Shown here: positions 6,966 to 23,251 of the stretch, piece after piece
How positions within the stretch are numbered: position 1 is the stretch's first letter
Layout of the letters: each line of letters opens with the position of its first letter
From: Terracidiphilus sp.
GTDB lineage: Bacteria > Acidobacteriota > Terriglobia > Terriglobales > Acidobacteriaceae
Reading direction: 5' to 3'
Length of the DNA stretch: 64,000 nt
NCBI GenBank assembly: GCA_050014655.1
Contig: JBEKCX010000001.1
Coordinates: 11,684 to 75,683, forward strand
The notes under the pieces: generated by a model
Told to the model about the DNA's origin: nothing
Databases searched by the model: none
Seen by the model: only the letters and a program-made list of their open reading frames with translations
Position numbers and translations under genes: made by a program

Positions 6966-8396
6966 TCAATGCTGCATGGCTAGCTCGGTCAGGTCCAGCC
7001 CGCTGCGCGCGCGCGCGTTGTTGCGGTCGCAGGCCAGCACCGCGCGAAACTGCCTGAGCGCGGCGGGATACTTGCCTTGCTGCCGGTTTCTCTCCGCCTG
7101 ATCGAGCATCTTGGGAAGCAGGTTCGCGTCCAGGTCGCAGTTGCCCGCCGGGGCGGCCTTGGGCTGCTTGGCCGGAGATGCCAGGGCAGCGTGGGAAGCG
7201 GTTTTGGCTGGCGCTGGCGCGGGCGCTTGGCCCTTGCGGCTCTTGGGGGCCGGCTTGCCGGGCTTTGCCGGCTTCGGCGCGGTGGCGGCACTTGCGGGAG
7301 GGGCGGGATTGGCGGGCAGGCTCTGGGCAGGTGGGGCAACGATGGGGGCGATAGCGGGCTGGCCGGCGCTGGAGTCCGGGCCGGGCTGCGGAACTCCGGC
7401 AACGGGGCCGGGTGGAGGCGCGGCGGTCGAGGCGGCCGGGGACGCGGACGCCGAAGAAGCCGGGAGCGCCGCAACGGCCGCCGGCTTCGGCATCCAGGTG
7501 TGCTTGTAAGCGACCGCCAACGCTGCGCCAACGATAAACAGTATGGCGGCCGCGGCTGCCAAGCCCCGGAGCCAGCGCGACTTTCCGCGCGGGGGAGCGG
7601 CGAAGGCTTCGAGATCCACGTGAGCCAGCGTCACCGTATCCGGCTCCGCAGCACTCGGTTCTGCCGCACTCGGCACCGCCGCACGCGGCTCTGCTGCAAG
7701 CGGGGTTGCGATCAACCCGCCGTCTGCCGCGGCGGGCTGCGGTTCGGCGGGAGGGACGGCCGTCTGCGGAGGCGGGGCAGGCGCCTCGCCCCCCAATCCA
7801 CTTGGCTGGATCAACCGGGAGAGCGCCTCCTCGTCGGAGGATCGGCTGGGCGCTTCCTTGCCGGCGCGCCAGAGCAGCTCGCACGGAGCGGCGTCCGAGG
7901 CAGTCTGCAAGGGAAGGCCGGGCAGATCGTGCAGAAGTTCAGCGGCCTTTGCGGTCAGCAGGATCTGCCCCGGCGCGGCGTTCTCCAACGGGAGCAGAAC
8001 GGAACTGTCATTCTCCAGGGCAGGCAGATCGGGAGCGGAGTGAACCAGGACAGCGGCAGCCGTTGCGGCGAATCGGTCAGCCTCAGAGAGCCCCTGGAGC
8101 GCCCATTGCAGCCGGCGCGCCGTCAGAACTGCAGGTTGAATGCCGGGAAAGGCAGCCACAAGGAACCTGCCGCGGGGCGCGGACGCGACCCCCTGCTCAG
8201 CCGCGATAAGGTCAAGGGCGAGAAAGACGGCCGGATCGTCACCCGTCCAGGAGAGATCGACGGCCGGGGCGTTCTCAGGGGCTCTCCACAGCCGGATGGA
8301 AAGGGCCGCTCCGCTGGGGGATGGGCTCTCCTTGACCACTGGAGTGGCTTGAGTCGCCGGCTGGCCGGGTGGTCGGGATTGCTCGGAGGAGGCCAT
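6966..8396 (-). CDS. Bitopic membrane protein: degenerate class III nucleotidyl-cyclase-like N-domain, Pro/Ala linkers, one TM, C-terminal TPR-like hairpin
   Basis: FLVAAFPGIQPAVLTARRLQ, VLVHS and LENAAPGQILLTAKAAELL resemble the class III cyclase scaffold; TM GLAAAAAILFIVGAALAVAY; C-terminal LDQAERNRQQGKYPAALRQFRAVLACDRNNARARSGL. Confidence 0.65.
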   Translation of the reverse strand: MASSEQSRPPGQPATQATPVVKESPSPSGAALSIRLWRAPENAPAVDLSWTGDDPAVFLALDLIAAEQGVASAPRGRFLVAAFPGIQPAVLTARRLQWALQGLSEADRFAATAAAVLVHSAPDLPALENDSSVLLPLENAAPGQILLTAKAAELLHDLPGLPLQTASDAAPCELLWRAGKEAPSRSSDEEALSRLIQPSGLGGEAPAPPPQTAVPPAEPQPAAADGGLIATPLAAEPRAAVPSAAEPSAAEPDTVTLAHVDLEAFAAPPRGKSRWLRGLAAAAAILFIVGAALAVAYKHTWMPKPAAVAALPASSASASPAASTAAPPPGPVAGVPQPGPDSSAGQPAIAPIVAPPAQSLPANPAPPASAATAPKPAKPGKPAPKSRKGQAPAPAPAKTASHAALASPAKQPKAAPAGNCDLDANLLPKMLDQAERNRQQGKYPAALRQFRAVLACDRNNARARSGLDLTELAMQH

Positions 8397-8644
8397 TTTT
8401 TCTGCTGACGCAACTGTACAGACTCCGGCTTGCCGGTGCGCAAAAGAATTGCACCTCTACGGAGGAGAATGGTAGTTTAACAGACGTGGCGAACCGGGGT
8501 GAAATGGATTCGCGGTGTGCCGGCGCGGTCCCCCCAACGCGCAGTTCTCCGGTTGCATTTCGCCCAGAGGCATTCCGTATTGTGAAGTGAATAAGACGGC
8601 AGGCGGGATCATCCTGCCGGGTTGGATCGAATTCTGGGGATTTC

Positions 8645-11341
8645 ATGGCATTGTGTGTCGTTATGCAAGAAGCAAGATCGCAGCGCAGTTTTTTGTGGAA
8701 GGCCGTCGCGTTGACGGCGCTTGGGCTGAGCTGGAATGCGCCTGCCGCCCTGGCAAAACAGGCTTCCCTCACGGCCATCGAACTCTACGATGGGCCGTCG
8801 GGTGCGGCCTATGTGCAACTTGGCGATGTGCTCATCAACGGCAAGTTCGAGATGCGCAATTGCACGCCATTCCAGGCGGCGGCCATCGACCATTCGACCT
8901 ACGGCAAGATGGAGAAGCTGGCGCTCGCGCCGGGCGGGGTTGTGGAGCGCGGCGCCGACGGCGTCCTGCACTATGTCACCAATCAAGGCACGTCCCTGTG
9001 CGTGGTGCCCGACAATGTGAAGTTCGACCACAATGCGTCTTATACCCTGTCGGAGCTGGCGGACCGGGCTGTTTTGACGGGGACTCCGGTCCCTGTCTCA
9101 GGCGTTGAGGCAGGCCCTGTGCCGCCCTTGAAGAATGGCGTGAAGCTGGTTTTTGTTGCCGCACCCGACCCGGAGCTAGCCGAGTACCTGCGCGCGCAGA
9201 GAGCCGGAGACGTTGCCGGCTGGTCGAACTATCTCGCCAAGTATGCGCTTTCGCCCCATGCCGCCGATGCCAAGCTGGCGCTGGCGTCGCTTTATCTGGC
9301 TGGCGGCGAGGCCTCACTGGATAAATACGGAAAGTCGGTGGCCGCGGGCTCGCCCTCCTATAGCGACTTGAGGGATTCCAAGGTCCAGGCCGACAATGCG
9401 AATGCCGTCAATCCCGGCCTGGACCGGACCGAGAAGCTTCTGGGAGGGATTCGCGATCAACTCACCGCCATTGCGGACAGTGGCCGCGGCGAACTGAATG
9501 CTTACCAGGATGCATTCAAGAGCCATGCTCCGGGGTATGTTCACCTGCAGAATGCCAGGAAGCTGAGCGATGTGGTGAGCGGAGTCGACGCGAGCTTTCC
9601 TGCAGGCCAGGCTCTGGCCGGCGATGTGATGCAGGCCAGCGACGCCTTCGGCAGCGTGCTGCGGTCGGCGGAGTCGGCGGTGGTGGCCAAGCACATGGAC
9701 CAGGCGCTGGAAGCCATCGCTCCGTTGCGCCCGTTCCAGGACGAAGAGCCGCGCATCGCGGTCGTCGTCAATGCGGCTTACAGTTACTATCTGCAGCTGG
9801 GCAAGCATTTCGGCGAGGCGGCGGATTGGCCGAACGCCATCAAGCAGTACGAGAAGGCGGTGGGCGCGAATGACACTTCGGAGGCGCGGGACGCGCTGGC
9901 AGAGGCGCAAAAGCAACTGGTCATCGTCGAGGACAAGGCGGCGGCCGTGAAGGCGCTGGCGACCAGCCGCGACTATGAGCAGCAGAAGGATGTGATAAAT
10001 GCCTTTGAGGTGCTGTACAACCTGCCTCCTTCGCAGCAGGCGCTGGTCTCCGCCGACATCGACAGACTGAAGGACGCCTACGTCCAAAGCGCGGTCCGGG
10101 CGGCAAAGGACCTGCAGAAGGCGCACGATCCCATCCGCGGGCTGGGAGACGAGATTGGGATGGAGAAGGCCTACGACTACCTGCAGCGCGCTTATGAACT
10201 GAGCAAGGTGGACTCCTACCAGGACACGATGGGCATTCTTGGCGACGATTTGAGCGCCTACTTTGTAGACCAGGCCAAGCGCTACCTGGACAAGCCGGCC
10301 GGATCGGGCACGGAGATGGGCTGGACCTATCTCGACGAGGCCCTGTCCTTTGAACCTTCCAACCAGACGGCGCACGACGCCAAGGTGGCGGCGGCTCCGG
10401 CTCATGCCATGCATTCGAAGATATCGATTCGCGTGCAGTTCCGCGACCAGACTTCGCAGCGCAACAGCACCGGCTTCATTCCCCAGCTGGAGGACGCGAT
10501 TATTACCGGACTGGAGGCGCCCACCATCACCGCGGTTCGATTTGGGGAAGCGACGGGCGGCGTGGAGCCGGATTTTCAACTGGCCGGAGACGTGTTGGAG
10601 CGTCAGATCGTGGAGACCTCAAATCTGGAAGCCAAGGAGTCAAAGTACCGCGCCGGGACGCATGAAGATCCCAACGAGGCGTGGAACAAGGCCAATCGGG
10701 CCTATGACGCGGCTGTGCGCCAACTGGCGACGGATCAGTCCGCGCTCCAGGGAGTGGAGGCGAAGGGCAAGAAGAAGGACATCGATGAGGTGAACGCAAG
10801 GATCGCCGCGGACCAGAAGGCAGTGGCGGACGCCCAGGCGCTGGCCGACTCGCTGCCCAAGACCATCACCATCGATGTGATTCGCCCTTACCAGTACGTT
10901 CGCAGGACCATCGATGTCAAGAACACCATCAAGCTGCAGTTTCGCATCGGCGAGACGTTGAGCGGGCAGATGGGGGATGCGGTGGTGGTGGAGAAGGAAG
11001 ACCCCAGGCAGTACGTGTTGCTGGAGGAAGTGAAGGCGGACGACACCGAGGGCGTGAAGCTGGGCGGGACCACTCCCAACACCAGCGAACTGCAGACGGC
11101 GCTGGAGAATGCGGCGCGCGATGAGCTGGTTCAAAAAGTGCGCCTGAAGGTGCAGGAGCTGCCGCGCCAGGTTTATGACGCGGGCCGGGCGAGGGAGCAG
11201 GAAGAAAACGTGGATGGCGCGGGCGAGTATTACCTGCGTTATCTGAGCTGCACCGCGGAGAATGGCTCGGCGGAGCGGCGGCACGCCAAGGAGTTTCTGG
11301 CCGAGAAGTTCAATATGCGGCCGGCGGGCGACCCGCGGTAG
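8645..11341 (+). CDS. Large exported TPR-like protein with C-terminal alpha/beta domain (possibly CsgG/LptE-like) and coiled-coil insert
   Basis: Signal peptide ending AALA|K (start 8645 or 8663); helical repeats (WSNYLAKYALSPHAADAKLAL, WPNAIKQYEKA); C-terminal ISIRVQFRD...PDFQLAGDV. Confidence 0.7.
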   Translation: MALCVVMQEARSQRSFLWKAVALTALGLSWNAPAALAKQASLTAIELYDGPSGAAYVQLGDVLINGKFEMRNCTPFQAAAIDHSTYGKMEKLALAPGGVVERGADGVLHYVTNQGTSLCVVPDNVKFDHNASYTLSELADRAVLTGTPVPVSGVEAGPVPPLKNGVKLVFVAAPDPELAEYLRAQRAGDVAGWSNYLAKYALSPHAADAKLALASLYLAGGEASLDKYGKSVAAGSPSYSDLRDSKVQADNANAVNPGLDRTEKLLGGIRDQLTAIADSGRGELNAYQDAFKSHAPGYVHLQNARKLSDVVSGVDASFPAGQALAGDVMQASDAFGSVLRSAESAVVAKHMDQALEAIAPLRPFQDEEPRIAVVVNAAYSYYLQLGKHFGEAADWPNAIKQYEKAVGANDTSEARDALAEAQKQLVIVEDKAAAVKALATSRDYEQQKDVINAFEVLYNLPPSQQALVSADIDRLKDAYVQSAVRAAKDLQKAHDPIRGLGDEIGMEKAYDYLQRAYELSKVDSYQDTMGILGDDLSAYFVDQAKRYLDKPAGSGTEMGWTYLDEALSFEPSNQTAHDAKVAAAPAHAMHSKISIRVQFRDQTSQRNSTGFIPQLEDAIITGLEAPTITAVRFGEATGGVEPDFQLAGDVLERQIVETSNLEAKESKYRAGTHEDPNEAWNKANRAYDAAVRQLATDQSALQGVEAKGKKKDIDEVNARIAADQKAVADAQALADSLPKTITIDVIRPYQYVRRTIDVKNTIKLQFRIGETLSGQMGDAVVVEKEDPRQYVLLEEVKADDTEGVKLGGTTPNTSELQTALENAARDELVQKVRLKVQELPRQVYDAGRAREQEENVDGAGEYYLRYLSCTAENGSAERRHAKEFLAEKFNMRPAGDPR

Positions 11342-11380
11342 TTTCCGGCGCGGCGAACGGGCGAGAGACGGAGCGAGAGC

Positions 11381-14056
11381 ATGGAATCCCGCAGTGAGAA
11401 GCCGGCGGACACATTGACTCAGATAGGCAAGTATGAAGTCGTTGGGGTGCTGGGGCGCGGCGGGATGGGCGTGGTCTATCGCTGCGTCGATAGCCACCTG
11501 GGCCGCGAAGTCGCCATCAAGACGCTGACCGAGGGAGTCAAGAGCGATCCCGCCATGCTGGCGCGCTTTTACGAGGAAGGCCGCAAGACGGGGAATTTCA
11601 GCCATCCGAATATCGTCACCGTCTACGAGCTTGGCGACGACAAGGGGATTCCCTACATCGTGATGGAACTGGTCGAAGGCGATCCGCTCGACAAGCTGAT
11701 CGCAGCCGAGGAGCAGCTTCCGCTGGTCGAGCGCCTGCGGATCATGGCCGATGTGTGCTCCGCGCTGGGCTATGCGCACGGCCAGAATGTGATCCATCGG
11801 GACGTGAAGCCCGCCAATATCTTTGTGCAGCCCGACGGGCGGGTCAAGCTGCTGGACTTCGGCATCGCGCGGCCGGAGGAGCGAAAGGAGCAGGACCTCA
11901 GCCTCACCCGCCGCGGCCGCATCGTCGGGACGGTTGAGTATATGGCGCCGGAACAACTGACGGGCAAGCCCCTGGACCGCCGTTCCGACATCTTTGCCGC
12001 GGGCGTGGTTCTGTATCAACTGGTCTGCGGCGAGCTTCCGTTCTCCGGCGACGAGATCGTGCTGATGCGGAGGATTCTGAATGAGCCGCACCCTCCGCTG
12101 AGCAGCAAGTGCAAGGGCTGCCCGGCCTCACTGGACGCAATTGTCGATCGGGCGCTGGCCAAGTCTCCGGCCGACCGCTACTCGACGGCCGACGAGATGG
12201 CCGCTGATCTGACCACGGTGATCGCGGAGATTCAGGAGGGGCAGGCCCAGGAGTTATTGCCCGAGGCCAAGCGGCTGATGGAGGCGCAGGACCTTCAGCG
12301 CGCTCGCGCCGCGCTGCAACAACTGCTGAAGATGCAAAGCAAGAATGCCGAGGCGCGGGAGCTGCTGGCGGAGATTCAGCGGCAACTGAGCCAGCGCCAG
12401 CGCGAGGAGAGAATCCAGCAGCTTCGGCGCCAGGCGGAGGGCCTGCTGAACGACCAGGAGTTCGATAAGAGTCTTGCGATTCTGGATGAGGGGCTGGAGC
12501 TGGATGCCGCGAATCAGGAATTGAAGGAACTGCGGCAGCGGGTTGAGAAAGGCAAGGAGAAGCAGGAGCAGGTGCGCGAGTATCTGCGCCAGGCGGACGC
12601 CGCGCGCCGGGCGGGCGACTACAAGACCGCGATCTCCGCCGCCCGTGAGGCGCTGCAACTGGATGAGTCGAACTCCAAGGGAATAGTGCTCGTAAGCCTT
12701 CTCACCAAGGAGGCAGAGGAGGCCGGGAAGCGCGCCGACGTGAAGACGCTGCTGGAGGCGGCGCGCAGGGAACTGAGCCTGCGGCGCTACAAGGAAGCGA
12801 TCGAGGTTTTGCAGAAGGCGGCGCAGGCAGACCCGGCCAACCCGGAGATTCCGATTCTGCTGGAAGACGCCAACTTCGGTCTGGAGCAGATCAAGCGCAA
12901 GGAGTTGATTGCGCGACTGGAGACCGAAGTGCTGGCGGCGGCCGGCCTTGACGAGCTGGAACGATGCGCGCGGTCGGTTCAGGAAGCGCTGGCTTCCATG
13001 CCCACGGATACGACGCTGATCCGCCTGAACGCGCAGATTGACCGGCAGATCAAGGAACAGGAGAATCGCCGCTTTGTGGAAGAGACGATTCAGGCCTGCC
13101 GCGACCTGCGCCCAAAGGAGGCTTTGAAGCTGGTCCAGGAGGCCCGGCAGCGCGTTCCAGGCGAGGAGCGGCTGCAGGGGCTGGAAAAGCTGCTCTCCGA
13201 TCGGGTCAAGCGGCAGACGGAAGAGGAGCGGCGGGAAGAAATCGTATCCCAGGCGCGCGAGGCCCTGGCCGGCGGAAAGTATGCGGATGCGGTTCGCATC
13301 CTGGAAGGTTGCCAAGCGGAAGGCATTGCCACCGATGAGATTCTTTCGCTGCTGGAGTTTGCCCGCCGCGAAGAGGAAGAGCATCGCAGCCAGGCGCTCA
13401 CGCGCAGCCGGGTTGCGCAGGCGCAGGCGCTGATCGGCGCATCGGCCTACGAGGAAGCGATCGCGTTCCTCGAAGGCGCGATGAAAGAAACCGACGACAA
13501 GGCCCTGCGCTTCGTTCACGAACAGGCTTTGGAGGGCCGCGCGTCGCTCGCGAAACAGGTTGAGGCGGAGCTGGCAAATGCGGGAAAGCTGGCGCGGGAA
13601 GGAGGCCAGGCCGAGGCCGTCGAGTTTATCGAGTCGCTGCCGCCTGCCGTCCGGCGGTCGGAGCGGGTGCGGGCGGCCGAGTCCGCGCTCAGGGAAGAGC
13701 GCCAGGGGGCGATCTTCCGCACCATCGGCAGGGCGTACTCAGAGCTTGAGACCGACCTTTCGGCAGGCGAGAGCACCATGTGCCGGGTGGCGGCTGCCCT
13801 GGGCGATTCCACGCTTGCGGGCTCGGTCGCAGAGACGTTTCGCGGAAGGATGCGCGCCTTTGCCGACCGTTCGGTCGTGGACCTGACCGGGAAGTACAAG
13901 ATTATGATGGACAGCGGCGACAGGGCAGGCGCCGCGGAGCTGGCCACGAAAGTGGCCGGAATCGTTGACTACGCCGGCCCGGAGGCCAAATCCGGCTGGG
14001 AGAGCGTCGCCCCACGGCCAAGAAAGATCAGAACGCCGGTTCGTTTGAGCAGATAA
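11381..14056 (+). CDS. Hanks-type Ser/Thr protein kinase with long C-terminal TPR-like helical repeats, no obvious TM
   Basis: LGRGGMGVVY, VAIK, HRDVKPAN, DFG, GTVEYMAPE, SDIFAAG; ~58-aa helical repeats downstream. Confidence 0.95.
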   Translation: MESRSEKPADTLTQIGKYEVVGVLGRGGMGVVYRCVDSHLGREVAIKTLTEGVKSDPAMLARFYEEGRKTGNFSHPNIVTVYELGDDKGIPYIVMELVEGDPLDKLIAAEEQLPLVERLRIMADVCSALGYAHGQNVIHRDVKPANIFVQPDGRVKLLDFGIARPEERKEQDLSLTRRGRIVGTVEYMAPEQLTGKPLDRRSDIFAAGVVLYQLVCGELPFSGDEIVLMRRILNEPHPPLSSKCKGCPASLDAIVDRALAKSPADRYSTADEMAADLTTVIAEIQEGQAQELLPEAKRLMEAQDLQRARAALQQLLKMQSKNAEARELLAEIQRQLSQRQREERIQQLRRQAEGLLNDQEFDKSLAILDEGLELDAANQELKELRQRVEKGKEKQEQVREYLRQADAARRAGDYKTAISAAREALQLDESNSKGIVLVSLLTKEAEEAGKRADVKTLLEAARRELSLRRYKEAIEVLQKAAQADPANPEIPILLEDANFGLEQIKRKELIARLETEVLAAAGLDELERCARSVQEALASMPTDTTLIRLNAQIDRQIKEQENRRFVEETIQACRDLRPKEALKLVQEARQRVPGEERLQGLEKLLSDRVKRQTEEERREEIVSQAREALAGGKYADAVRILEGCQAEGIATDEILSLLEFARREEEEHRSQALTRSRVAQAQALIGASAYEEAIAFLEGAMKETDDKALRFVHEQALEGRASLAKQVEAELANAGKLAREGGQAEAVEFIESLPPAVRRSERVRAAESALREERQGAIFRTIGRAYSELETDLSAGESTMCRVAAALGDSTLAGSVAETFRGRMRAFADRSVVDLTGKYKIMMDSGDRAGAAELATKVAGIVDYAGPEAKSGWESVAPRPRKIRTPVRLSR

Positions 14057-14152
14057 GAGCTGCGCCCGGGGTGAACGCTGCGGAGCACATCCGCGCACGG
14101 ATGCTCAACGATGCGCGATTGGCATCGGAGTCATTTCTGAGATCAACAGCGA

Positions 14153-15118
14153 TCAAGCGGGCAGGGCGAGGAGCAGGATGCAGGTGATGTTATCCACGCC
14201 GCCGCGCTGCTTGGCCATGTGGATGAGGTTGGAGCAGGCCGTTTCGAAGGTCGAGGCGGCGAGGATGGAGGCGATCCCGTCCTCGGCAAAGTAGCGGGTC
14301 AGGCCGTCGGTGGCCAGGAGAACCCCGATGCCGGGCTTGAGATCGACGGAGTAGAAGTCGGGCTGCACCTCGGTGCCCACGCCGACCGCGCGGGTAATGA
14401 CCGACTCCATGCCGCGCAGATCCGCCAGGTGGGCGTTTTCGATGGTCAGCGTGCCGTTGCGAATCAGTTCATTGATATAGGAATGATCGACGGTGAGCTG
14501 CGCGCAGCGGTTGTCCTGGAGGATGTAGGCGCGACTGTCGCCGACGTTGCCCAGTATGAGTTTGTCTTGATCGAGCGCGGCCGCCACCACGGTGGTTCCC
14601 ATGCCTTTGTTCTCCGGAATCTGCCCGCTCTCCCAAACGTCGAGATTGGCGGTATTGATGGCATGTAGCAGCCGGGTGCTGACGGGCAGGCCGGAGGCCG
14701 CCGAAGCGGCGAAGCTCTGCATGATGGCCGCCACCGTGCGCGAGCTGGCGACTTCGCCGCTGGCCATGCCTCCCATGCCGTCGCAGACGACAAAGATGCC
14801 CAGCGATTCATCGTAACCGAAGCAGTCTTCGTTATTGCTGCGCACGCAGCCAATATCGCTGAGCGCGGAGACCGCGATGCGAAAGGGAGGGGCGGCGGGA
14901 ACCGGCGGCTCGGCCGGCTCGGCTGAAAGCTCGGCAGGAGCGGCTGGACTGCTCGCAGGCTCTTCGATGGGCGCGGGTTCGGCCGATGCCTCTGCCGTCT
15001 GCGGCTCGGCCGGTTCCGGCGCAGGGTCCGGCGCGGCATCGGCTGGGGCCGCGGCTTCGGCCGACTCTCCAAGGGGTGCGCCCCACTGCGGAAGATCGTT
15101 GGTGAGTTCTTCGGTCAT
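14153..15118 (-). CDS. PP2C-family Ser/Thr phosphatase (PppA/Stp1-like) with Pro/Ala-rich N-terminal extension
   Basis: SDIGCVRSNNED, VCDGMGG, GMGTT, NVGDSRAY, LTVDHS, LATDGL, GGVDNIT. Confidence 0.95.
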   Translation of the reverse strand: MTEELTNDLPQWGAPLGESAEAAAPADAAPDPAPEPAEPQTAEASAEPAPIEEPASSPAAPAELSAEPAEPPVPAAPPFRIAVSALSDIGCVRSNNEDCFGYDESLGIFVVCDGMGGMASGEVASSRTVAAIMQSFAASAASGLPVSTRLLHAINTANLDVWESGQIPENKGMGTTVVAAALDQDKLILGNVGDSRAYILQDNRCAQLTVDHSYINELIRNGTLTIENAHLADLRGMESVITRAVGVGTEVQPDFYSVDLKPGIGVLLATDGLTRYFAEDGIASILAASTFETACSNLIHMAKQRGGVDNITCILLLALPA

Positions 15119-15205
15119 TTTCCAGCCTTGATTGTTCCCAGTGTAACCTTAACCCTCGTGCCCATCCTGCCCGCTGCGGCGATTGGCGCACAAGTATCGC
15201 TCACG

Positions 15206-18200
15206 CTAGCGAGCCACGTTTGCAACGCAGTGAAATCCTTTCATGAAATCCGGGTTCAGCAATGGCGCCCCAGGGCCCGAGGCGTCGAAGAGCACGATCT
15301 CAGGGGCTTGATTGTTGAAGCTGAAGAAGAACTTCAGGCGGTTGGGAGCGATCTGCGGCGCGGCGAAGCCAAAGTGGAAGACCGACCACAGGCCGGTCAT
15401 GACAGGCGCGGTGTTCTTCTGGGTGGCGAGGGTGATCTTGCTGGACGGTTGAGAGACCCAATGGAAGGTGGCCGACTGGCCGCTCGCAGCGATCTGCTTG
15501 CCATCGATATTGAGAACGGCATCGGCATTGCCGGGCCCCTTGACCTCGGTGAGGGTGAAGTCGAGCGAAGGCTGGTTTCCGCCGCCCGGATAGAGGCTGG
15601 ATGAGATCTTCTGGGCGTGGGTGAGGAAGCTGAGGAACGCGGGGTTGATATGGACCGTGGAGCCGGGAGCCACCACGTATTGAGAGCCCTGCAGCGCCAC
15701 CAGCGCATGGATGGATGCGGTGAACTGCGCAAAGGAGCCGGAACCGGGGGCGAAGACCTGGGCGACCTCATCGGTAGAAGCCTCGTTCGAGGACTGGGGG
15801 TCGAAGGGGAACTTGGAAAGCACGGGCGCAATCTGCGCGCAGAAGGTCTTGGCTCCGCCGCCGGCGGCGTTGGCAGGCGCCTGGGCCGCCAGGTTCTTGA
15901 TGGATTCGATGGGCGCTTCGAGGAGAGTGAAGCTGGTCTTATCCATGCTCCCGGCTGGGTCGGGAAGAAAGCCGTTGCGAAGGTTTTCCGCGGCTTGTTC
16001 GGCGGTGACGGCGGCCTGGATAACGGGCGCGGCGGCGGTGGGATCGTTGGCGTTGGCGGTATTAAGAGTAAGGTTCTTCACGGCGCCTTCAAGCCCCTGC
16101 AGGGACTGAATATAGGCCTGGTTGGAAGGAGCAATGAAGCGATTATCCGGATTGGACGGAGGAACAACGGACTGCGGCGCCTGAAAGACGGTCGATATCT
16201 CCGGCGCGGCAACGCCGGTGTTGATGGAGATGAGCGAGAAGAGTTCCAGCATGGCGGAGGTATTGGAGTCCAGCGCGCCCAGCCTGGTTCCGGCATCGGC
16301 GAACCTCTGGTAGGGACGGAACTGCGCCTTGGTCAGGTAGGTTCGCCAGTTCTGGATGTAGTCGGCAATGTACGCCGATTTCAACTGGGTAGAGAGGGCG
16401 ACGCGGTCGATAGGGGGCCCGGAGGCGGGGCCGAGAACCCATTCTTCCCCGCGGAAGTAGGGGTCGGGGTGCAGGATCGCGTCCTGCATGAAGGCGAAAC
16501 CGTCCTTGGTGAAGGCTCCCTGCACCGTATAGCCGTCGACAATTTCCTGCACCGATCCGGGGAATTTGCTGTTGAAGTTGACCCCTGGGACTTTGTGGTT
16601 GGCGGCGGCCAGCATGCTTTGGTAGACGTGCTGGAATCCCTGGAAGCCATTGAGATAGAGGCGGGCATGGGCGACGACAACGTCGTTCAGAAGACCGCCG
16701 GTCTGCGCCATGCACGAGGATGGTTCGGCAATCATGCCGGCGTAAAACGCGAACTGAGTTTGCGCCAGCTGGGCGAGGTCCGGAGCGGGAGTTGCGCTGC
16801 CGGCCCATTCGGTTGCCAGCGCGGTGGGAAGGAAGTCGAGCGTGTCCTGGGCGGAGTCGGGATTGGGGTTTGTGGCCGTGACGATGTAGGCCTTCAGCGG
16901 CCGGTAAGTCGCGCTGTAGTCGGCGTCAGGCGTTGGCACGGCCGGCACGGCGCGCAGCTTGGCGAGAATTTGCTCCTGCGTCGGAGCCAGCAGCAGGGCG
17001 CGGAATTTGTTGGAGTAAGCCTGGCAGGCAATGGGATAGAGTGCCTCGCCGCGATAAAGGCCGAAGCGATCCATGAGCGGCGGGCCGTTCTTGCGATAGC
17101 CGTCGAGTTCATCCAGGACCGCTCTAAGCCTTTCGAGGGCCTCAAGGTCGGCGGAAGAGGCAAATGCGCCGGCGGAGACGGGCGTAACCGGCGCGCCCGC
17201 CGCCGCGGCTACGCGCTGTTCGAGCGAGCGGTTGTGGAAGAAGGAGATGGTGGTCAGTAGCAGCAGAATCAGAACGACCGCGCTGACGCAGCCGAGCAGC
17301 GCGCACTTGAGAAAGCTGGTCCGGGTGCTGGCGCGGCTGGCCTCCAGGGCCGACTTGTCGGCGAGCAGAATCTGCGAGAACAGGTGAGGCAGAAAGACCC
17401 ACTGCGCAACCTTGCGCGTACCGCCTCGCCGGGACTGCGGCGCGGGCGCCTGCTGCTGCTCCATGGCGGCGAGAGAAAAGATGCGGGTGGCCCCAGCGTT
17501 GACGGAAGGAGCGGCAGCCTGCGGCTGAGCCGGGCCGATCTCGAGAACGTCCTCGACCACGTGGGCGCGCATGCCGGCGAAGAAGAAACCGCGCAGGAAC
17601 GGGTTGACGCCGATCTGGCTGGGACGGGCAACCTCGGCGAGGAAAGAGACGATGCCGGCGCGGAGCTTGCGCAGGTCGCGGGGGAACTCATAGGCGCGCG
17701 CCAGGTCCTGGAGTTCGCCGCCGCGGGAGAGAATATCGAGGCGGAACTCGGAGAGCGCGTAAAGGAGCTGGTCGAACCGCGAGCCGATCAGGGCCGTGGC
17801 TTGCTCGGTATAGAGGCCGGAGCCGGAGTCGAGGGAAGAGAGCAGCGTGCCGATGGGGAGCTTGACCTCCTCGTCCGAGAGCCGGGCGACGTAATTGGCA
17901 AAGGGAGTGACGTTGTCCAGCTTGGTGAAGAGCACATAGACGGGCAGCGAGATGCCGAGGGTCTGAGAGAGCTGGCGGAGACGCTCATTCAGGGATTGCG
18001 CCAGGGCGCGAATCTGCTCGGAGGTATTGGGAGCCAGGATGCGCTCGATGCTGACGCAGACCACCACGGAGCGGGCCGGGAGGCGGCTGTCGCCGAAGAC
18101 CGAGCCAATCCGCGCGGGCATGGTGGCCTTGACGAGTCTCGCCCACAGCGGCGGCTGGCGCAGGAGCGAGCCTCCGGCCTCGACCAGAACGAAGTTGCCG

Positions 18201-18643
18201 GCCAGCCAGACGTTGGCCAGCTGAGTGGGAACGACGAGGCCGTCCCGATAGACGTTCCCGGCAAGCAATTCGGGGTCCAGGCCGGATTGCAGCACGGTTT
18301 GCGTCTTGGCGGAGTTCTCATCGCCAATCACATAGATAAGGGGCAGGGAAGCCAGCGACTTGGCGCCCGCGCGATTGGCTTGGCGAATGCGGGCATCAGC
18401 ATCGCGGAGCAAGGTGCCCAGGTTGATGGCGTCGGGAGTGTCGGGCCCGGCTGCTCGCCCCGCGGCCTTATCCAGGCTGTGCATATACCAAAGAACGAAG
18501 ACAACGGCCAATGCGCCCAGCAGACCGAGAATGACGCAAAAGAGCACCAGTCTTGTGCCTTCAAAGTGCAGGGCAAACGCCCCCCAAATCACCAGGGCCA
18601 GATAGACGAGAAAGATCAGTATCCCGATCAGGATGCGTTTCAT
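15206..18643 (-). CDS. tssM: Type VI secretion membrane complex subunit TssM (IcmF)
   Basis: Two N-terminal TMs, LPLIYVIG..SAKT P-loop remnant, LPVYVLFTKLD, PFLRGFFF, third TM, FGLYRG, KFPFDP; overlaps tssL stop. Confidence 0.9.
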   Translation of the reverse strand: MKRILIGILIFLVYLALVIWGAFALHFEGTRLVLFCVILGLLGALAVVFVLWYMHSLDKAAGRAAGPDTPDAINLGTLLRDADARIRQANRAGAKSLASLPLIYVIGDENSAKTQTVLQSGLDPELLAGNVYRDGLVVPTQLANVWLAGNFVLVEAGGSLLRQPPLWARLVKATMPARIGSVFGDSRLPARSVVVCVSIERILAPNTSEQIRALAQSLNERLRQLSQTLGISLPVYVLFTKLDNVTPFANYVARLSDEEVKLPIGTLLSSLDSGSGLYTEQATALIGSRFDQLLYALSEFRLDILSRGGELQDLARAYEFPRDLRKLRAGIVSFLAEVARPSQIGVNPFLRGFFFAGMRAHVVEDVLEIGPAQPQAAAPSVNAGATRIFSLAAMEQQQAPAPQSRRGGTRKVAQWVFLPHLFSQILLADKSALEASRASTRTSFLKCALLGCVSAVVLILLLLTTISFFHNRSLEQRVAAAAGAPVTPVSAGAFASSADLEALERLRAVLDELDGYRKNGPPLMDRFGLYRGEALYPIACQAYSNKFRALLLAPTQEQILAKLRAVPAVPTPDADYSATYRPLKAYIVTATNPNPDSAQDTLDFLPTALATEWAGSATPAPDLAQLAQTQFAFYAGMIAEPSSCMAQTGGLLNDVVVAHARLYLNGFQGFQHVYQSMLAAANHKVPGVNFNSKFPGSVQEIVDGYTVQGAFTKDGFAFMQDAILHPDPYFRGEEWVLGPASGPPIDRVALSTQLKSAYIADYIQNWRTYLTKAQFRPYQRFADAGTRLGALDSNTSAMLELFSLISINTGVAAPEISTVFQAPQSVVPPSNPDNRFIAPSNQAYIQSLQGLEGAVKNLTLNTANANDPTAAAPVIQAAVTAEQAAENLRNGFLPDPAGSMDKTSFTLLEAPIESIKNLAAQAPANAAGGGAKTFCAQIAPVLSKFPFDPQSSNEASTDEVAQVFAPGSGSFAQFTASIHALVALQGSQYVVAPGSTVHINPAFLSFLTHAQKISSSLYPGGGNQPSLDFTLTEVKGPGNADAVLNIDGKQIAASGQSATFHWVSQPSSKITLATQKNTAPVMTGLWSVFHFGFAAPQIAPNRLKFFFSFNNQAPEIVLFDASGPGAPLLNPDFMKGFHCVANVAR

Positions 18644-19398
18644 AGGGATATCTCCGCAAGGCTGGTTGCCGGGTTATTCGCCAGGGTTGGAGGCGTTTGC
18701 TCAATGCCGCGCGCGGTGGTGGGCATCGACTGGCCAAGAATCAGCATGTAGCCGAGATAAGCCAGGAGGGTGAAGACGGCCAGGACGATGGCGGTCACCG
18801 CCAGGCGGAGCACCCAGGGGTCGCGTTTGGGGCGGGGGGGCGCAGCCGGGGCTTCGGGGGGGCGGAGGAGCGCATAGGCGCCGCGGATGCGGGTGATCTT
18901 GTCGCGGATGCGGCCGAGAATGGCGTGAATCTCAGAGGCGTCGCCGAAGGCGAAGCGGCCGCGGTAGCCCAGCAGCAGGCAAAGGGCATGCAGCTCCAGC
19001 ACGTCGGCAACCTCGGCGGATTCGGGCCGGTTGAGCAGATCGGTCACGTTGCGGAAGAAGTATTCGCCGGCGAAGTGACCGCCGAACATCTCTTCCTGCA
19101 GCGGACGGCGGGCCCAGTCGGCGAAGGTCGGGTCCTTGGAGTTGAGGACGCTCTCGTCGAGGAATCCGATCATGGCGTAGATGGCCATCTTGGAGGCCTC
19201 ATCGCTGTAACCCATGGCGGAAGCGTCTTTGACCGCCGCTGAGATCATCTTGCGCAGGGTGGCGCGGAAGGAGTCGGCGTTTTCAACGCGCTGAACGTAA
19301 AAGCGGGTGCGCAGGATGACGGTAAAGACTTCCTGGAAGGCCATAGCCAGATTGTTGGTCTTCATCACCTGAAGAGGGGAAGCTGGAGAAGAAGTCAT
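18640..19398 (-). CDS. tssL: Type VI secretion protein TssL (DotU), short form without OmpA domain
   Basis: YAMIGFLDESVL, W..RPLQEEMFGGHFAGEYFF, LCLLLGYRGRF, C-terminal TM. Confidence 0.92.
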   Translation of the reverse strand: MTSSPASPLQVMKTNNLAMAFQEVFTVILRTRFYVQRVENADSFRATLRKMISAAVKDASAMGYSDEASKMAIYAMIGFLDESVLNSKDPTFADWARRPLQEEMFGGHFAGEYFFRNVTDLLNRPESAEVADVLELHALCLLLGYRGRFAFGDASEIHAILGRIRDKITRIRGAYALLRPPEAPAAPPRPKRDPWVLRLAVTAIVLAVFTLLAYLGYMLILGQSMPTTARGIEQTPPTLANNPATSLAEISL

Positions 19399-20747
19399 GC
19401 GGAGGTCTCCGTGATGATGGTGAGTTCAAAGGTTGCGTCGCCCAGGTCGCCGGGCAGATAGACTCCCACCTGCTTGGTCAGGAGAATATGCTGCCAGCAA
19501 GCGCCGCTGAGGGAGACGGAGAAGTAGTGCATGTCGGCCTGGGCGTGGAGCGCGGCGGGCGGGACGGGCAGGTGCATCAGCTCCAGGCCGGGAAGGGCGC
19601 GCTGCACCAGCTTGGCAACCCCCTCGGCCGAACAGACCTTGACCAGCGCTGGGGTCTGGCGCAGGATGAGCGACTCGGCGATGGGGGAGCGGATGCCGAA
19701 GATCCAGCGCGCGCGGCGCAGGCAGCGCTCGTCCTTCACCTCGGCCGCAAAGATGTAACTGTCCGTTTTGCGGAACTGAAGAGTGACGGTGTTGGATGGG
19801 GCGACGATCTCGAGGTAGCGCCGGATAAGAGCATCCAACTCCTTGAATGTGGAAGCCAGGTCGCGATGCCGGTAGGCCGGAATCTCGTCGCGGGCCGATT
19901 CGAGGGCAAAGGTGCTCAATGCGCCGGCCAGGCGGACGAGATCGCGGTAGACCTCTTCCGGGTGGCTGCGGCGGTCCTGCAGATGATGGCGCAAGGCGGG
20001 CAGGCTGGAGCAAAGAGCGTGCAGGAACCAGTAGTTGGCCACATCGAGGGCTGAAGTGCCCAGCTCGAAGCCGCCGGAACTGGCCCTCACGGAACGGGTG
20101 GAAACGATCTTCTCATCGATCGCCTGAACCAGCCGGTGCAGGATCAGAACCAGGCTCTCGGACGCGCTGATGCGCAGGCAGGGTGGAATGAAGTCGGGGT
20201 CGGAGGCAAATCCCCCTTTGCCGTCGCGAAAGATGCGAGCGATGGGAAACGAGACGGCGCCTTCGGCGAGCTGAGCCTGGCTCAACAGGACGAGGTTCTT
20301 GCGGGCGAATGAGACGCTGTTCTCGCCCTGGCCAAGGGCGTCGTCTCTGAGCACGCGCTTGACGGCGCCATACCGGGCGCTCGAGCCGCCGCCGAGGTCG
20401 CAGTCCAGACCCTGGTCCTGGCGGGGCGGAATCGCCAGGTGCAGGATGATCTCGCTGTCGGTGGAAGCGAACAGGCGGCTCAGTTGCACTGGCTCAGGAA
20501 CCGAGTCGCAGTCGGGCAGATCGAAGATGAGCCCGTCGGGCAGAATGCCGGAAGCGAAGTTGAGAATGGCGAGACCGTTGCCGAGGGCCTCCGTGTCGAT
20601 GGAGAAATGAAGAAATCCCCACGGCTCCTGGCGAAGGTTGGAGTTGAGAAACCAGAGCGAATCTTCGAAATACCGGCTCTGCGTCTGAAAATGATGCGGA
20701 CCGAGATGCATTCCTTCAGACCAGACGACCCGCGAAAGGAACTTCAT
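19395..20747 (-). CDS. tssK: Type VI secretion baseplate subunit TssK
   Basis: MKFLSRVVWSEGMHLGPHHFQ, WGF, GILPDG, FIPPCL, HPEEVY..L..LAGAL, YRHRDL, V.RALPGLEL; start taken at MKFL. Confidence 0.93.
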   Translation of the reverse strand: MKFLSRVVWSEGMHLGPHHFQTQSRYFEDSLWFLNSNLRQEPWGFLHFSIDTEALGNGLAILNFASGILPDGLIFDLPDCDSVPEPVQLSRLFASTDSEIILHLAIPPRQDQGLDCDLGGGSSARYGAVKRVLRDDALGQGENSVSFARKNLVLLSQAQLAEGAVSFPIARIFRDGKGGFASDPDFIPPCLRISASESLVLILHRLVQAIDEKIVSTRSVRASSGGFELGTSALDVANYWFLHALCSSLPALRHHLQDRRSHPEEVYRDLVRLAGALSTFALESARDEIPAYRHRDLASTFKELDALIRRYLEIVAPSNTVTLQFRKTDSYIFAAEVKDERCLRRARWIFGIRSPIAESLILRQTPALVKVCSAEGVAKLVQRALPGLELMHLPVPPAALHAQADMHYFSVSLSGACWQHILLTKQVGVYLPGDLGDATFELTIITETSA

Positions 20748-21013
20748 AGCAGGGAGACCACCATGGGCGAGAGTTGAACAGCAGGTTGGTTTCCGGATCG
20801 GTCGCGGGCGAAGCTCCATCGAGAGCAGCCTGGCCTCGATCGAAAGAATCATGCCGTCTGTCCGGACGATACTCCCAATAACCTTCGCTGAGTCTATTCG
20901 TCCGGCGTGGAGGGGTGCAACCGCATTATACGCAAAATCTTTTTGGGTAAATAGGCAAATCGGGCGCGACGGAATGATTTATGCTACCGGCATTGCACCG
21001 GAGGCCTGATGGC

Positions 21014-22801
21014 ATGGACAAAGCGACGAAACCGGATGGATCGAACGCCTCACCGTGGCCGGAGGAATCCGGTTCGGAACAGGGTTTTGGTGCAACGGGC
21101 GTTTTTCAGGTGGTGAAGACGCCGGAGGCTCCGGCTGGACCAGCCCCCTCGGGATTGGAGTCCTTCTTCCCGGAGAACCGCGCTCCGGAGCCGGCAAGGC
21201 CGCTGCCGCCGCCAGCGCCTAGGTCGCTGGCCGAGCCGGTGGTCCACAAGGTGGTCTTCGGGGCCGGCGCGGAGAGCTCGCCGGAGCTCCTGGACCGGAT
21301 GCGGCTGGCCTCGGCGGAGAGAGCGCCTCTTGCGGAGAAGGTTCCGGCGGCCGGTTCCGGCGGCGCGGGCAGCGGAGGATTCACGGAACTGCTGCGCACA
21401 TTGGGAAGCGATTCGGCCCCGCCTCCGCCACCCCCCGCGCAAGAAGCGCCGGCGCCCGCGCGTCCAGCGCCCCCGTCGGGGTTCACCTCCCTGCTGCAAA
21501 CTCTGAACGCGCCGGAAGCAGCAGCGCCGCCAGTGAGACCGGTTCCAGAACAGCCCAGATCAGTCCCCGCGGCCTCAGGTTCGAGTGGATTCACGGAGTT
21601 GCTGCGGACCACGGGGGGCGCGGATGCAGGGCCGGGAGCTTCTGGGCTGGCGGCGCCGGGACCGGGCGAAGCGCCATTCTTCGCGGGAGCGGCCGGGGCC
21701 GTTCCCCCTGCCGCCGAAGGCAAGCCGGGAGCCTTCACGCAGTTGTTCGGCACGTTTGGCAGCGAGGCGAGCGCACCGGCCCCGGCGGCCAGCGAGCGCG
21801 GACCGGCGCCCTCCGCCGCAAAGGCGGATTCCTTCACTCGGATGCTGTCGCTTGAACCACAGCCTCCCGCCCGTGAGCCGGCCTTCCAGGAAGAGCGCAA
21901 GCCATTGCCGGGAAGCTTGAATTACGGCGTTACCCCTGGAATGGCCGGGCCGGCCGCGCCGGTCCGCGATCCATTTGCCGCGCCGGCGGCTGAGACCCCG
22001 CCGGAAGAAAGCACTCCGCCGGGGAGCGGAGTCGGTATTACGCGCTTGATTCAGATGCTGGATGAGCCTTCGAGGCCGCCGGCTGTGCCTGTTGAGGCCC
22101 CGCGGGTCAGCCCTCCGCTGGGGAAGGAGCCAGGGGCCTGGACGCAGACCTTCGCATCCCTCTCCACGCCCAGTGAACCAGCGCCGGCGGCCAGAGCGCC
22201 TGCGTGGGCTTCGCCGCCGCCCTCCGCGGCAGCGGCCCCGCCCGCGCGGGAGGTGCAGTTCCCCGGCGGCCTGAACGAGCCCGTCGTGCATCCGGCAGCC
22301 TCCGGACCGAGCGAATTTACGCGCATTCTCGATGCCTCCAGGATGCGCGAGATGGCCATGAGGGGCGGCGCAGGCGCGGCCAACCTGCCCCAGGCGCCGC
22401 TGCCGCAGGCTCCTCCGCCGCCGGCTCCCGCGCCGTTTTCCCCACCCGCGATGCCCAGTTATCCGCTTCCCGCAGCGCCGCCGATGGGCGGAATGCCGGG
22501 GATGGGGGCCATGCCTCAGCCCGGCGTTTACCCTCCTCCGCTGCCGCAGCCGCCGGCTTATCCAATGAGCTACGCGCCGCCGGCCGCGGTGATGCCGGCC
22601 GCGGGCGCAGGCTTGCCGCAGCCGCCCGGAATGTATGCTCCGGCGCCGCCGCCCATGCCCGCCGCTCCGCAAGCGCTGCCGGTGAAGCCGCCTGATGCGG
22701 CGCCGGGGAAACTACAGCAACTGGTGCCTGTGCTGCTGGTGGTGATCATCGTTCTGCTGATTGCGCTCCTGGTGACGGTCATCTTCCTGATGAAGCATTA
22801 G
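21014..22801 (+). CDS. Pro/Ala/Gly-rich disordered protein with repeated G-x-F-T-x-L-L motifs and C-terminal membrane anchor
   Basis: GGAGG upstream of ATG 21014 (20981 alternative); repeated GGFTELLRT/SGFTSLLQT/GAFTQLFGT/SEFTRILDA; C-terminal LVPVLLVVIIVLLIALLVTVIFLMKH; divergent from tssK. Confidence 0.8.
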   Translation: MDKATKPDGSNASPWPEESGSEQGFGATGVFQVVKTPEAPAGPAPSGLESFFPENRAPEPARPLPPPAPRSLAEPVVHKVVFGAGAESSPELLDRMRLASAERAPLAEKVPAAGSGGAGSGGFTELLRTLGSDSAPPPPPPAQEAPAPARPAPPSGFTSLLQTLNAPEAAAPPVRPVPEQPRSVPAASGSSGFTELLRTTGGADAGPGASGLAAPGPGEAPFFAGAAGAVPPAAEGKPGAFTQLFGTFGSEASAPAPAASERGPAPSAAKADSFTRMLSLEPQPPAREPAFQEERKPLPGSLNYGVTPGMAGPAAPVRDPFAAPAAETPPEESTPPGSGVGITRLIQMLDEPSRPPAVPVEAPRVSPPLGKEPGAWTQTFASLSTPSEPAPAARAPAWASPPPSAAAAPPAREVQFPGGLNEPVVHPAASGPSEFTRILDASRMREMAMRGGAGAANLPQAPLPQAPPPPAPAPFSPPAMPSYPLPAAPPMGGMPGMGAMPQPGVYPPPLPQPPAYPMSYAPPAAVMPAAGAGLPQPPGMYAPAPPPMPAAPQALPVKPPDAAPGKLQQLVPVLLVVIIVLLIALLVTVIFLMKH

Positions 22802-22846
22802 GAGTTTGCCGGGAATCGATTCCCAGAGGACTCGTTGGAGGAAGAG

Positions 22847-23251
22847 ATGCTGAAGGGCTTTCGGGATTTTATCCTGCGCGGAAACGTCGTGGACCTGGCG
22901 GTCGCCGTCATTCTCGGCGCGGCCTTCAATGCGATCGTCACGTCGTTTGTGAAGGACATACTCACCCAGTTGATCGCCGCCGTTGTGGGCAAGCCGGACT
23001 TCAAGGATGTGGTGCTCAAGCTGAACGGCACCCCCATCTATATCGGCAACTTCCTGAACGCGGTCATCGCGTTTTTGATTGTGGCCGGCGTGGTCTATTT
23101 TGCCATTGTGCTGCCGTTGAACGCGCTCATGGCGCGGCTCAAGAAGCCCGCGCCGGAGGCTCCCTCGTCGATGAAGACCTGCCCGGAGTGCCTGAGCGAG
23201 ATTCCGCTGGCCGCCAAGCGCTGCGCCCACTGCGCCCAACCGGTGGCATAG
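22847..23251 (+). CDS. mscL: Large-conductance mechanosensitive channel with C-terminal C4 zinc-ribbon-like tail
   Basis: MLKGFRDFILRGNVVDLAVAVILGAAF, IGNFLNAVIAFLI; tail CPECLSEIPLAAKRCAHC. Confidence 0.95.
   Translation: MLKGFRDFILRGNVVDLAVAVILGAAFNAIVTSFVKDILTQLIAAVVGKPDFKDVVLKLNGTPIYIGNFLNAVIAFLIVAGVVYFAIVLPLNALMARLKKPAPEAPSSMKTCPECLSEIPLAAKRCAHCAQPVA

Follow-up and report, generated by a model that had tools for sequence, protein, structure and literature searches.

A probable split type VI secretion system with two TssK paralogues and a proline-rich tether in a Terracidiphilus genome

In the canonical type VI secretion system (T6SS; type i, as in enteroaggregative E. coli), each wedge holds two trimers of one TssK bound in unlike positions, and the N-terminal 15 residues of TssK form a pocket for the TssG loops, as given in the accessible portion of PMC6300606. 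Here we analyze a tssK-tssL-tssM locus of Terracidiphilus sp. (assembly GCA_050014655.1) within a 64,000-nucleotide stretch of contig JBEKCX010000001.1 (positions 11,684 to 75,683), hereafter the window; genomes, contigs and loci used for comparison carry our own G, C and L numbers. The window very probably holds the membrane-complex half (tssK2-tssL-tssM-PP2C together with a tether gene) of a T6SS that is divided over at least two loci, in a two-TssK, tether-bearing build with no detectable Fha. Likeness to the canonical machine extends to TssK, TssL, TssM, TssF, TssG, the start of TssB and part of ClpV in this genome, and to TssC, Hcp, TssA, TssE, VgrG and PAAR in relatives. The departures are two conserved TssK paralogues where E. 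coli uses one, no detected TssJ, an additional tail-anchored disordered protein, and a cluster that is split in this clade. Split T6SS clusters have a precedent in Xanthomonas i4, according to the available part of PMC9048695.

Three further systems bear on the comparison. The PpkA-PppA-Fha pathway is known from the Pseudomonas H1 system as well as from Agrobacterium. In the latter, TssL phosphorylated at Thr14 takes part in a threonine phosphorylation pathway (PMC3953482, accessible part). The clusters studied here resemble that pathway in that a PP2C gene adjoins tssM, most have Hanks kinases nearby and threonine motifs are conserved. They differ in that the C-terminal domain of T6SS Fha (PF20232) was found in 0/43 genomes of this type (control genome G453 was positive), and in that the candidate sites lie in the tether and a TssM loop, not in TssL; these motifs, with a hydrophobic residue three places after the threonine, are only loosely like the Agrobacterium site pT-V-V-E-I in the same part of PMC3953482. 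In Acidovorax citrulli, the disordered region and membrane-bound end of Fha nucleate assembly, the protein being described as a condensate scaffold in the accessible text of bioRxiv 10.1101/2023.12.21.572528. The tether shares with Fha, as described there, a long disordered region, membrane association and a proposed multivalent recruitment, a works-like analogy only, whereas it has no FHA domain, no Fha C-terminal domain, a true transmembrane (TM) anchor, F-T-x-L/F motifs and no sequence family in common with Fha. The Acinetobacter T6SS, finally, is a TssJ-less system with TsmK, and in the available part of PMC10564176 it likewise combines a membrane complex without recognizable TssJ with lineage-specific accessory genes; TsmK, however, has a ketoacyl-synthase-like fold as opposed to the disordered tether, and the lack of TssJ here depends on a single HMM with limited reach. 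The two-TssK, tether-bearing acidobacterial build is apparently undescribed: the literature searched, with most subscription papers and supplements outside the search, gave no description of it, and the available text of a 2026 review of T6SS accessory factors (PMC13584744) contains no mention of proline, disordered or Acidobacteri.

Membrane-complex genes in the window and tail genes elsewhere

The half in the window comprises the following features.

19395..20747, minus strand: tssK2, a TssK paralogue (PF05936, E 1e-119; TIGR03353), likely start 20747 within an ORF opening at 20852
18640..19398, minus strand: tssL, short form with a C-terminal TM helix and without an OmpA domain (PF09850, E 3e-42; TIGR03349; TM scan)
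15206..18643, minus strand: tssM, 1145 aa (PF14331, PF06761, PF21070; TM scan)
17477..17494, minus strand: GATRIF motif (Ala385-Thr386) in a variable cytoplasmic loop of TssM, candidate phosphothreonine site
14153..15118, minus strand: PP2C/PppA-like Ser/Thr phosphatase with a Pro/Ala/Glu-rich N-terminal extension (PF00481, NF033484, motifs)
20981..22801, plus strand: tether, 606 aa, Pro/Ala/Gly-rich and predicted disordered, likely start 21014 (alignment and motif counts)

A sequence-only reading of the window had described tssK, tssL and tssM as a tightly coupled operon followed by a PP2C gene. This description held: profile matches pass their cut-offs, 4-base overlaps occur at both the tssK/tssL and tssL/tssM junctions, and all eight ORFs of the proposed locus are in place. 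The phosphatase keeps its DG, DG and DN motifs and adjoins tssM in most related loci. The flanks were also correctly called ordinary, with a PMT_2 (GT-C) gene on one side and mscL on the other, and there is no obvious GC shift (0.648 for the locus vs 0.633 for the window); a promoter and terminator scan gave signal at chance level. TssM has its closest named relatives, at 93-95% identity, in proteins labelled Terracidiphilus sp. As a separate observation, the Walker A region of TssM (residues 107-114; gene 15206-18643, minus strand) reads GDENSAKT in this clade vs GESGAGKT in G046, and nucleotide binding by the protein may be weakened.

The same reading had found no tail genes in the window and had offered two explanations, a split T6SS or a tail-less TssKLM channel repurposed under threonine phosphorylation. 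The absence extends to the window's whole contig, where tblastn with 12 tail and baseplate proteins of G012 gave no tssA/B/C/E/F/G, tagJ, hcp, vgrG or PAAR match and where none of the four clpV matches listed for the whole genome falls. The assembly is fragmented (791 contigs, N50 7.2 kb, no contig below 2.5 kb, completeness 89.7%), and searching all of it for the tail gave a divided answer: tssF, tssG, clpV, the start of tssB and a second tssK were recovered, while TssC, Hcp, VgrG and TssA were not found, nor were TssE and PAAR present in this 89.7%-complete assembly. A family search placed TssF at the edge of a 3-kb contig; C373 carries the 3′ part of tssF, then tssG, then the 5′ part of clpV, and is cut at both ends. 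The second gene, tssK1, lies on C135 (L064:5439-6794) and is 35% identical to tssK2 of the window; C135 breaks off after 14 codons of a divergent gene, and the translation of this fragment corresponds to the TssB start in relatives. This genome shows TssK, TssL, TssM, TssF (3′ part of the gene), TssG, the first 14 codons of TssB and the 5′ part of ClpV, with frames open up to the contig ends.

Relatives fill in what the contig ends cut off. Six metagenome contigs (L133-L138) carry a tssK1 96-99% identical to ours, flanked, as in C135, by nrdR and, at its other end, by tssB-tssC-hcp; two of them, L135 and L136, align with both C135 and C373 and bridge the 6,223-nt gap with tssB, tssC, hcp, tagJ, tssA, tssE and the rest of tssF. 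Among tssK1 loci, 76 of 80 have tssB, and in the remaining four the sequence breaks off no more than 100 nt from the tssK1 start. A 99%-complete genome whose TssM is 95% identical (G496) divides the system between two contigs, one with kinase-PP2C-tssM and the other with nrdR, tssK1/tssB...clpV-vgrG; it carries hcp, tssA, tssE and vgrG, and L135-L138 carry hcp, tssA and tssE. In G491, assembled into 7 contigs, tssLM lies ~200 kb from tssC on the same contig, so splits of the T6SS do occur in this genus. Most relatives have an unbroken cluster that runs clpV-tssG-F-E-A-tagJ-hcp-C-B / tssK1 / tether / tssK2-L-M-PP2C; here it is broken between tssK1 and the tether, with mscL and nrdR as new neighbors. 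All 12 tssK-bearing genomes of 36 sampled from the genus have two copies and tssC, and tssC is present in 37/38 other tssM-bearing genus genomes; these sets overlap and consist of kin, and their counts are not independent. Because the contig ends are cut mid-operon and relatives carry the genes, we infer that the tail genes are present, and tssC, hcp, tssA, tssE and vgrG were likely lost in assembly gaps.

These data speak for the split T6SS of the two explanations, and a working contractile system in this genome is, in our judgment, very probable. For the tail-less channel one may cite the contig free of tail genes, the four components missing from the assembly and a relative, G493, that has this half alone; the start of tssB, tssF, tssG, clpV and tssK1 at contig ends of the same genome, the whole tail in the nearest relatives, the bridging of the gap by L135 and L136 and the steady company of tssC, about which co-occurrence without sheath and tube genes had been the question, leave it barely credible. 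A T6SS decaying in this strain, its cluster broken up and part of its tail deleted, would fit the scatter over at least C1, C135, C373 and C365/C22 and the failure to find vgrG. Against decay stand the frames open to the contig ends and the same split with an intact tail in relatives; in sequencing run X1, where 96% of the words sampled from the C135 stretch are present, contigs moreover cover the tssA-tssK1 stretch of L133 in all 30 bins and a single one crosses the end point of C135, both weak indications from mixed-strain data; runs with small shares were left out of account. We regard decay as improbable.

Two TssK paralogues, a tether and threonine signaling

In a draw of 401 genomes from the phylum at large, tssK matched in 52, with at least two copies in five. 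Across Acidobacteriaceae and Bryobacteraceae records, K1 and K2 form sister clades (FastTree, 142 rows; SH-like support 99, 99 and 100), and by their sequences the two paralogues stem from one old duplication. Fixed differences between them cluster in the first 30 residues (6/18 conserved columns vs 3/62 elsewhere at a threshold of 0.85, with the long-branch K2 row L259 dropped), the end of the protein that in E. coli forms the TssG pocket. By analogy with the E. coli wedge, a TssK1 trimer might sit on one TssG loop and a TssK2 trimer on the other, giving a wedge with two different feet, an arrangement that we put forward with some reserve.

The tether answers to the Pro-rich repeat membrane protein of the sequence-only reading; it is 21% Pro and has a repeated motif and a C-terminal TM helix. 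Its anchor lies at 22730-22786, preceded by an N-terminal A-T-x-x-F motif and eight G/S/V-x-[FIW]-T-x-hydrophobic-hydrophobic repeats at 21374-22336. The family motif is P-G-[GES]-F-T-[QR]-[LMI]-[FL], in 3-9 strict copies followed by the C-terminal TM helix; the window protein has 5 strict copies vs at most 1 in 2,000 shuffles, and the Thr is invariant in the aligned motif columns. The gene is divergent from tssK2 or tssL in 11/11 genus loci containing that interval, and it occurs in 56 of 62 informative loci by the motif rule, or 59/62 with three more recognized by eye. The two-tssK locus of G327 carries it; nine single-tssK loci, of which two were retrieved only in part, showed none. Pfam gave no family match in 12 members; in Atlas, two unnamed, mostly acidobacterial clusters match. 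No other protein with at least three motifs was found among 4,430, although the gene caller missed the tether ORF itself, so other Pro-rich genes could escape. On sequence grounds, the tether appears to be a conserved partner of this T6SS subtype. The window's tether has no kinase-like head; in L258 and L267 an additional N-terminal stretch of the protein resembles a kinase by eye, with no match in Pfam or by BLAST to the window kinase.

TssM contains a counterpart of the tether's N-terminal motif. Its A385 and T386 are invariant in 11/11 aligned proteins, the pattern x-A-T-x-x-hydrophobic recurs in 64/66 full-length TssM within an otherwise variable loop, and the GATRIF motif of the window's TssM has the same pattern as A-T-x-x-F of the tether. 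PP2C and kinase genes flank most related clusters. The window kinase, with intact catalytic motifs, shows no TM helix in a TM scan. The better analogue of PpkA is a paralogue on C365 that has a TM helix and shares 78% identity with the kinase in the T6SS cluster of G035. At the contig ends of C365 and C22 (G000), this TM-bearing kinase is followed by an exported 399-aa TPR-like gene divided over both contigs, and G014, G021, G024 and G035 have this pair next to their T6SS cluster.

By analogy with A. citrulli, the tether may be a membrane-anchored multivalent scaffold that does the job of Fha and is switched by kinase and PP2C, a proposal to which we give an even chance. In this model the repeated F-T-x-L/F helices would bring subunits of the baseplate or of the membrane complex together at the inner membrane, and Hanks kinase and PP2C would switch the scaffold via the invariant threonines and the matching TssM motif. 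Within the split T6SS, the tether might instead be a length or position anchor of the TagA/TsmB kind, or an array of membrane-binding amphipathic helices, with no phospho-switch. The motifs are amphipathic by pattern, and FHA readers were not found in some T6SS-positive genomes, as such an anchor would have it; the Thr invariant in the motif columns, the recurrence of A-T-x-x-F in TssM and the PP2C and kinase genes that usually flank the clusters tell against it, and we consider it unlikely. A complex prediction with tether residues 112-285 and the TssK1 and TssK2 head domains scored 0.00, gave no answer and was used neither way.

FHA domains are the usual readers of phosphothreonine. As an obligatory reader, FHA was set aside: FHA proteins occur in 12/15 T6SS-positive and 10/16 T6SS-negative genomes tested. 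The only ones seen inside a cluster are fusions to the effector adaptor DUF4123. One such fusion lies beside vgrG in G013 (L058:5937-6782), and G019 has an FHA gene of the same length at the same place; a fusion of this kind could link effector loading to phosphorylation.

Several results weigh against the split, two-TssK, tether-bearing and threonine-switched system described so far. Family searches of the assembly returned no TssC, Hcp, VgrG or TssA. In G493 (94% complete, 260 contigs; C3, L326-L327), tssK1, tssC, tssF, tssA and vgrG were not found; this genome retains tssK2-L-M-PP2C-tether, the only such half among 38 genomes, and is a candidate half-system in which an unbinned contig and a true loss fit equally. 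Near tssK2 no tether was seen in L260, L279 and L285, loci labelled Bryobacterales or Bryobacteraceae. The K1/K2 tree was built with FastTree only and labelled from best BLAST hits, and the column test, whose p ranges from 0.003 to 0.03 by threshold, takes related sequences and neighboring columns as independent. As for a reader of the phosphothreonine motifs, no FHA domain was found in the T6SS-positive genomes G000, G014 and G035.

The adjacent cassette and other neighbors of the cluster

Three more genes of the window adjoin this half.

11381..14056, plus strand: Hanks Ser/Thr kinase without a TM helix, C-terminal region TPR-like (PF00069, catalytic motifs, TM scan)
8645..11341, plus strand: 898-aa predicted periplasmic protein, cassette member (structure model, fold searches, distribution)
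6966..8396, minus strand: 476-aa bitopic membrane protein, cassette member (TM scan, fold search, alignment)

The kinase and exported TPR protein of the sequence-only reading are borne out by the kinase motifs and, for the 898-aa protein, by a signal peptide read from the sequence and predicted TPR repeats. The latter combines this predicted signal peptide with an N-terminal beta domain (residues 43-171), helical/TPR repeats and a C-terminal CsgG/PelC/HpaA-type fold (structure model with mean pLDDT 88). Residues 591-843 score Z 10.3 against the curli complex 6lqh, tied with 2iqi, HpaA and others, which denotes a shared fold and not a family assignment; Foldseek with the whole model returned TPR proteins only, and neither a lipobox nor a Pfam CsgG match was found. 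The degenerate-cyclase membrane protein was also rightly recognized. In the 476-aa protein, a degenerate class III cyclase domain, a linker, one TM helix and a Pro-rich linker lead to a C-terminal periplasmic TPR region. Its fold is that of a class III nucleotidyl cyclase (Z 13.4, rmsd 3.2, 136 residues aligned to 1ybt; the top 22 rows of the structure search are all class III cyclases), as seen from structure alone, since an HMM search of its alignment against PDB sequences matched the TPR end only. At the two metal-binding positions, placed by eye from cyclase motifs, the protein has no Asp; in an alignment of 58 sequences, none is shared in strand 1 or behind the conserved hairpin Gly.

The locus had been read as one system with three unusual partner proteins. 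That view stands for the Pro-rich tether, with its 59/62 loci, and fails for the 476-aa and 898-aa proteins and the kinase, which are a separable cassette and not a constant part of the T6SS. The three genes occur together in G005, G008, G022, G023 and the T6SS-free G009, and in part elsewhere (two genes in G015, one in G021). The 898-aa gene is enriched with tssM (14/39 tssM-positive vs 13/112 tssM-negative genus genomes, a contrast inflated by kin) but is neither required by tssM-positive genomes nor restricted to them, and 3 of 52 informative loci have it within 8-10 kb of tssM. Since the cassette occurs without a T6SS and its 898-aa gene is so seldom near tssM, the eight genes are not one system. 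A single machine in which the 898-aa protein, with its CsgG fold, replaces TssJ as outer-envelope part would have on its side the lack of a TssJ match in two-tssK genomes, the CsgG/PelC-type fold, the enrichment just given and the adjoining of the 898-aa gene to the T6SS in G005 and G022. Yet the gene was not found in 25/39 tssM-positive genomes and is present in 13 tssM-negative ones, the protein has no lipobox and the triad is intact in G009, which makes a single machine very unlikely. Normal T6SS activity without the 898-aa protein is already implied, because 25 genomes lack its gene.

It is conceivable, if far from assured, that the cassette is an envelope-sensing split receptor, now beside the PP2C gene, and feeds into the T6SS; the 476-aa membrane protein and its 898-aa periplasmic partner would sense, and the soluble kinase would signal. 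On C9 of G009 (L315-L316), the cassette lies within ~5-10 kb of FHA-domain genes, one of them with three FHA domains. CsgG-fold periplasmic proteins recur next to such kinases in the clusters of G327 and G012: in G327 the gene after tssM has CsgG plus FlgT_C (L308:4547-5632), and in G012 two kinases enclose an ORF with FlgT_C (L047:6382-6834).

The TssJ model PF12790 matched in 0/18 two-tssK genomes; it also matched in just 3/16 other tssK-bearing phylum genomes and may miss divergent copies. In G005, a gene for an unassigned 177-aa lipoprotein follows tssK2.

Other neighbors recur around these clusters. Left of the locus, a methyltransferase (2700-4187, plus strand) has MethyTransf_Reg and PKMT domains; relatives at 34-38% identity stand directly after tssM (L255:13436-14884, L257:5763-7262, L270:13498-14985), and another such relative lies between tssF and tssE in the G109 cluster (L299); the family is possibly T6SS-associated. 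A different methyltransferase (MTS, DUF7059, DUF7782) separates tether and tssB in G023, G005 and G022 (L052:3780-5249, L053:9802-11265, L077:17876-19339), and a CxxCxxCC (PF03692) gene is found at cluster edges (L057:617-1423, L075:17735-18523, L062:6133-6918, L296:605-1438). To the right, MscL (22835-23251, plus strand) ends in a zinc-ribbon-like CxxC segment with weak UPF0547/DZR matches.

Implications for T6SS assembly

A channel without a tail would have represented a new type of machine; the T6SS here is not categorically new. Taken together, its parts raise the tentative prospect of a Terriglobia T6SS subtype with two TssK trimers, one per TssG loop, in which nucleation without Fha or TssJ would fall to a disordered, membrane-anchored scaffold with many threonines, switched by kinase and PP2C. 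Cultured carriers of the system are Terracidiphilus gabretensis S55 (L229) and Granulicella paludicola DSM 22464 (L242). With two diverged tssK genes kept, the two wedge positions of TssK would become genetically separable, and for the question of how T6SS assembly starts without TssJ or Fha, the tether is a concrete candidate of interest to T6SS specialists.

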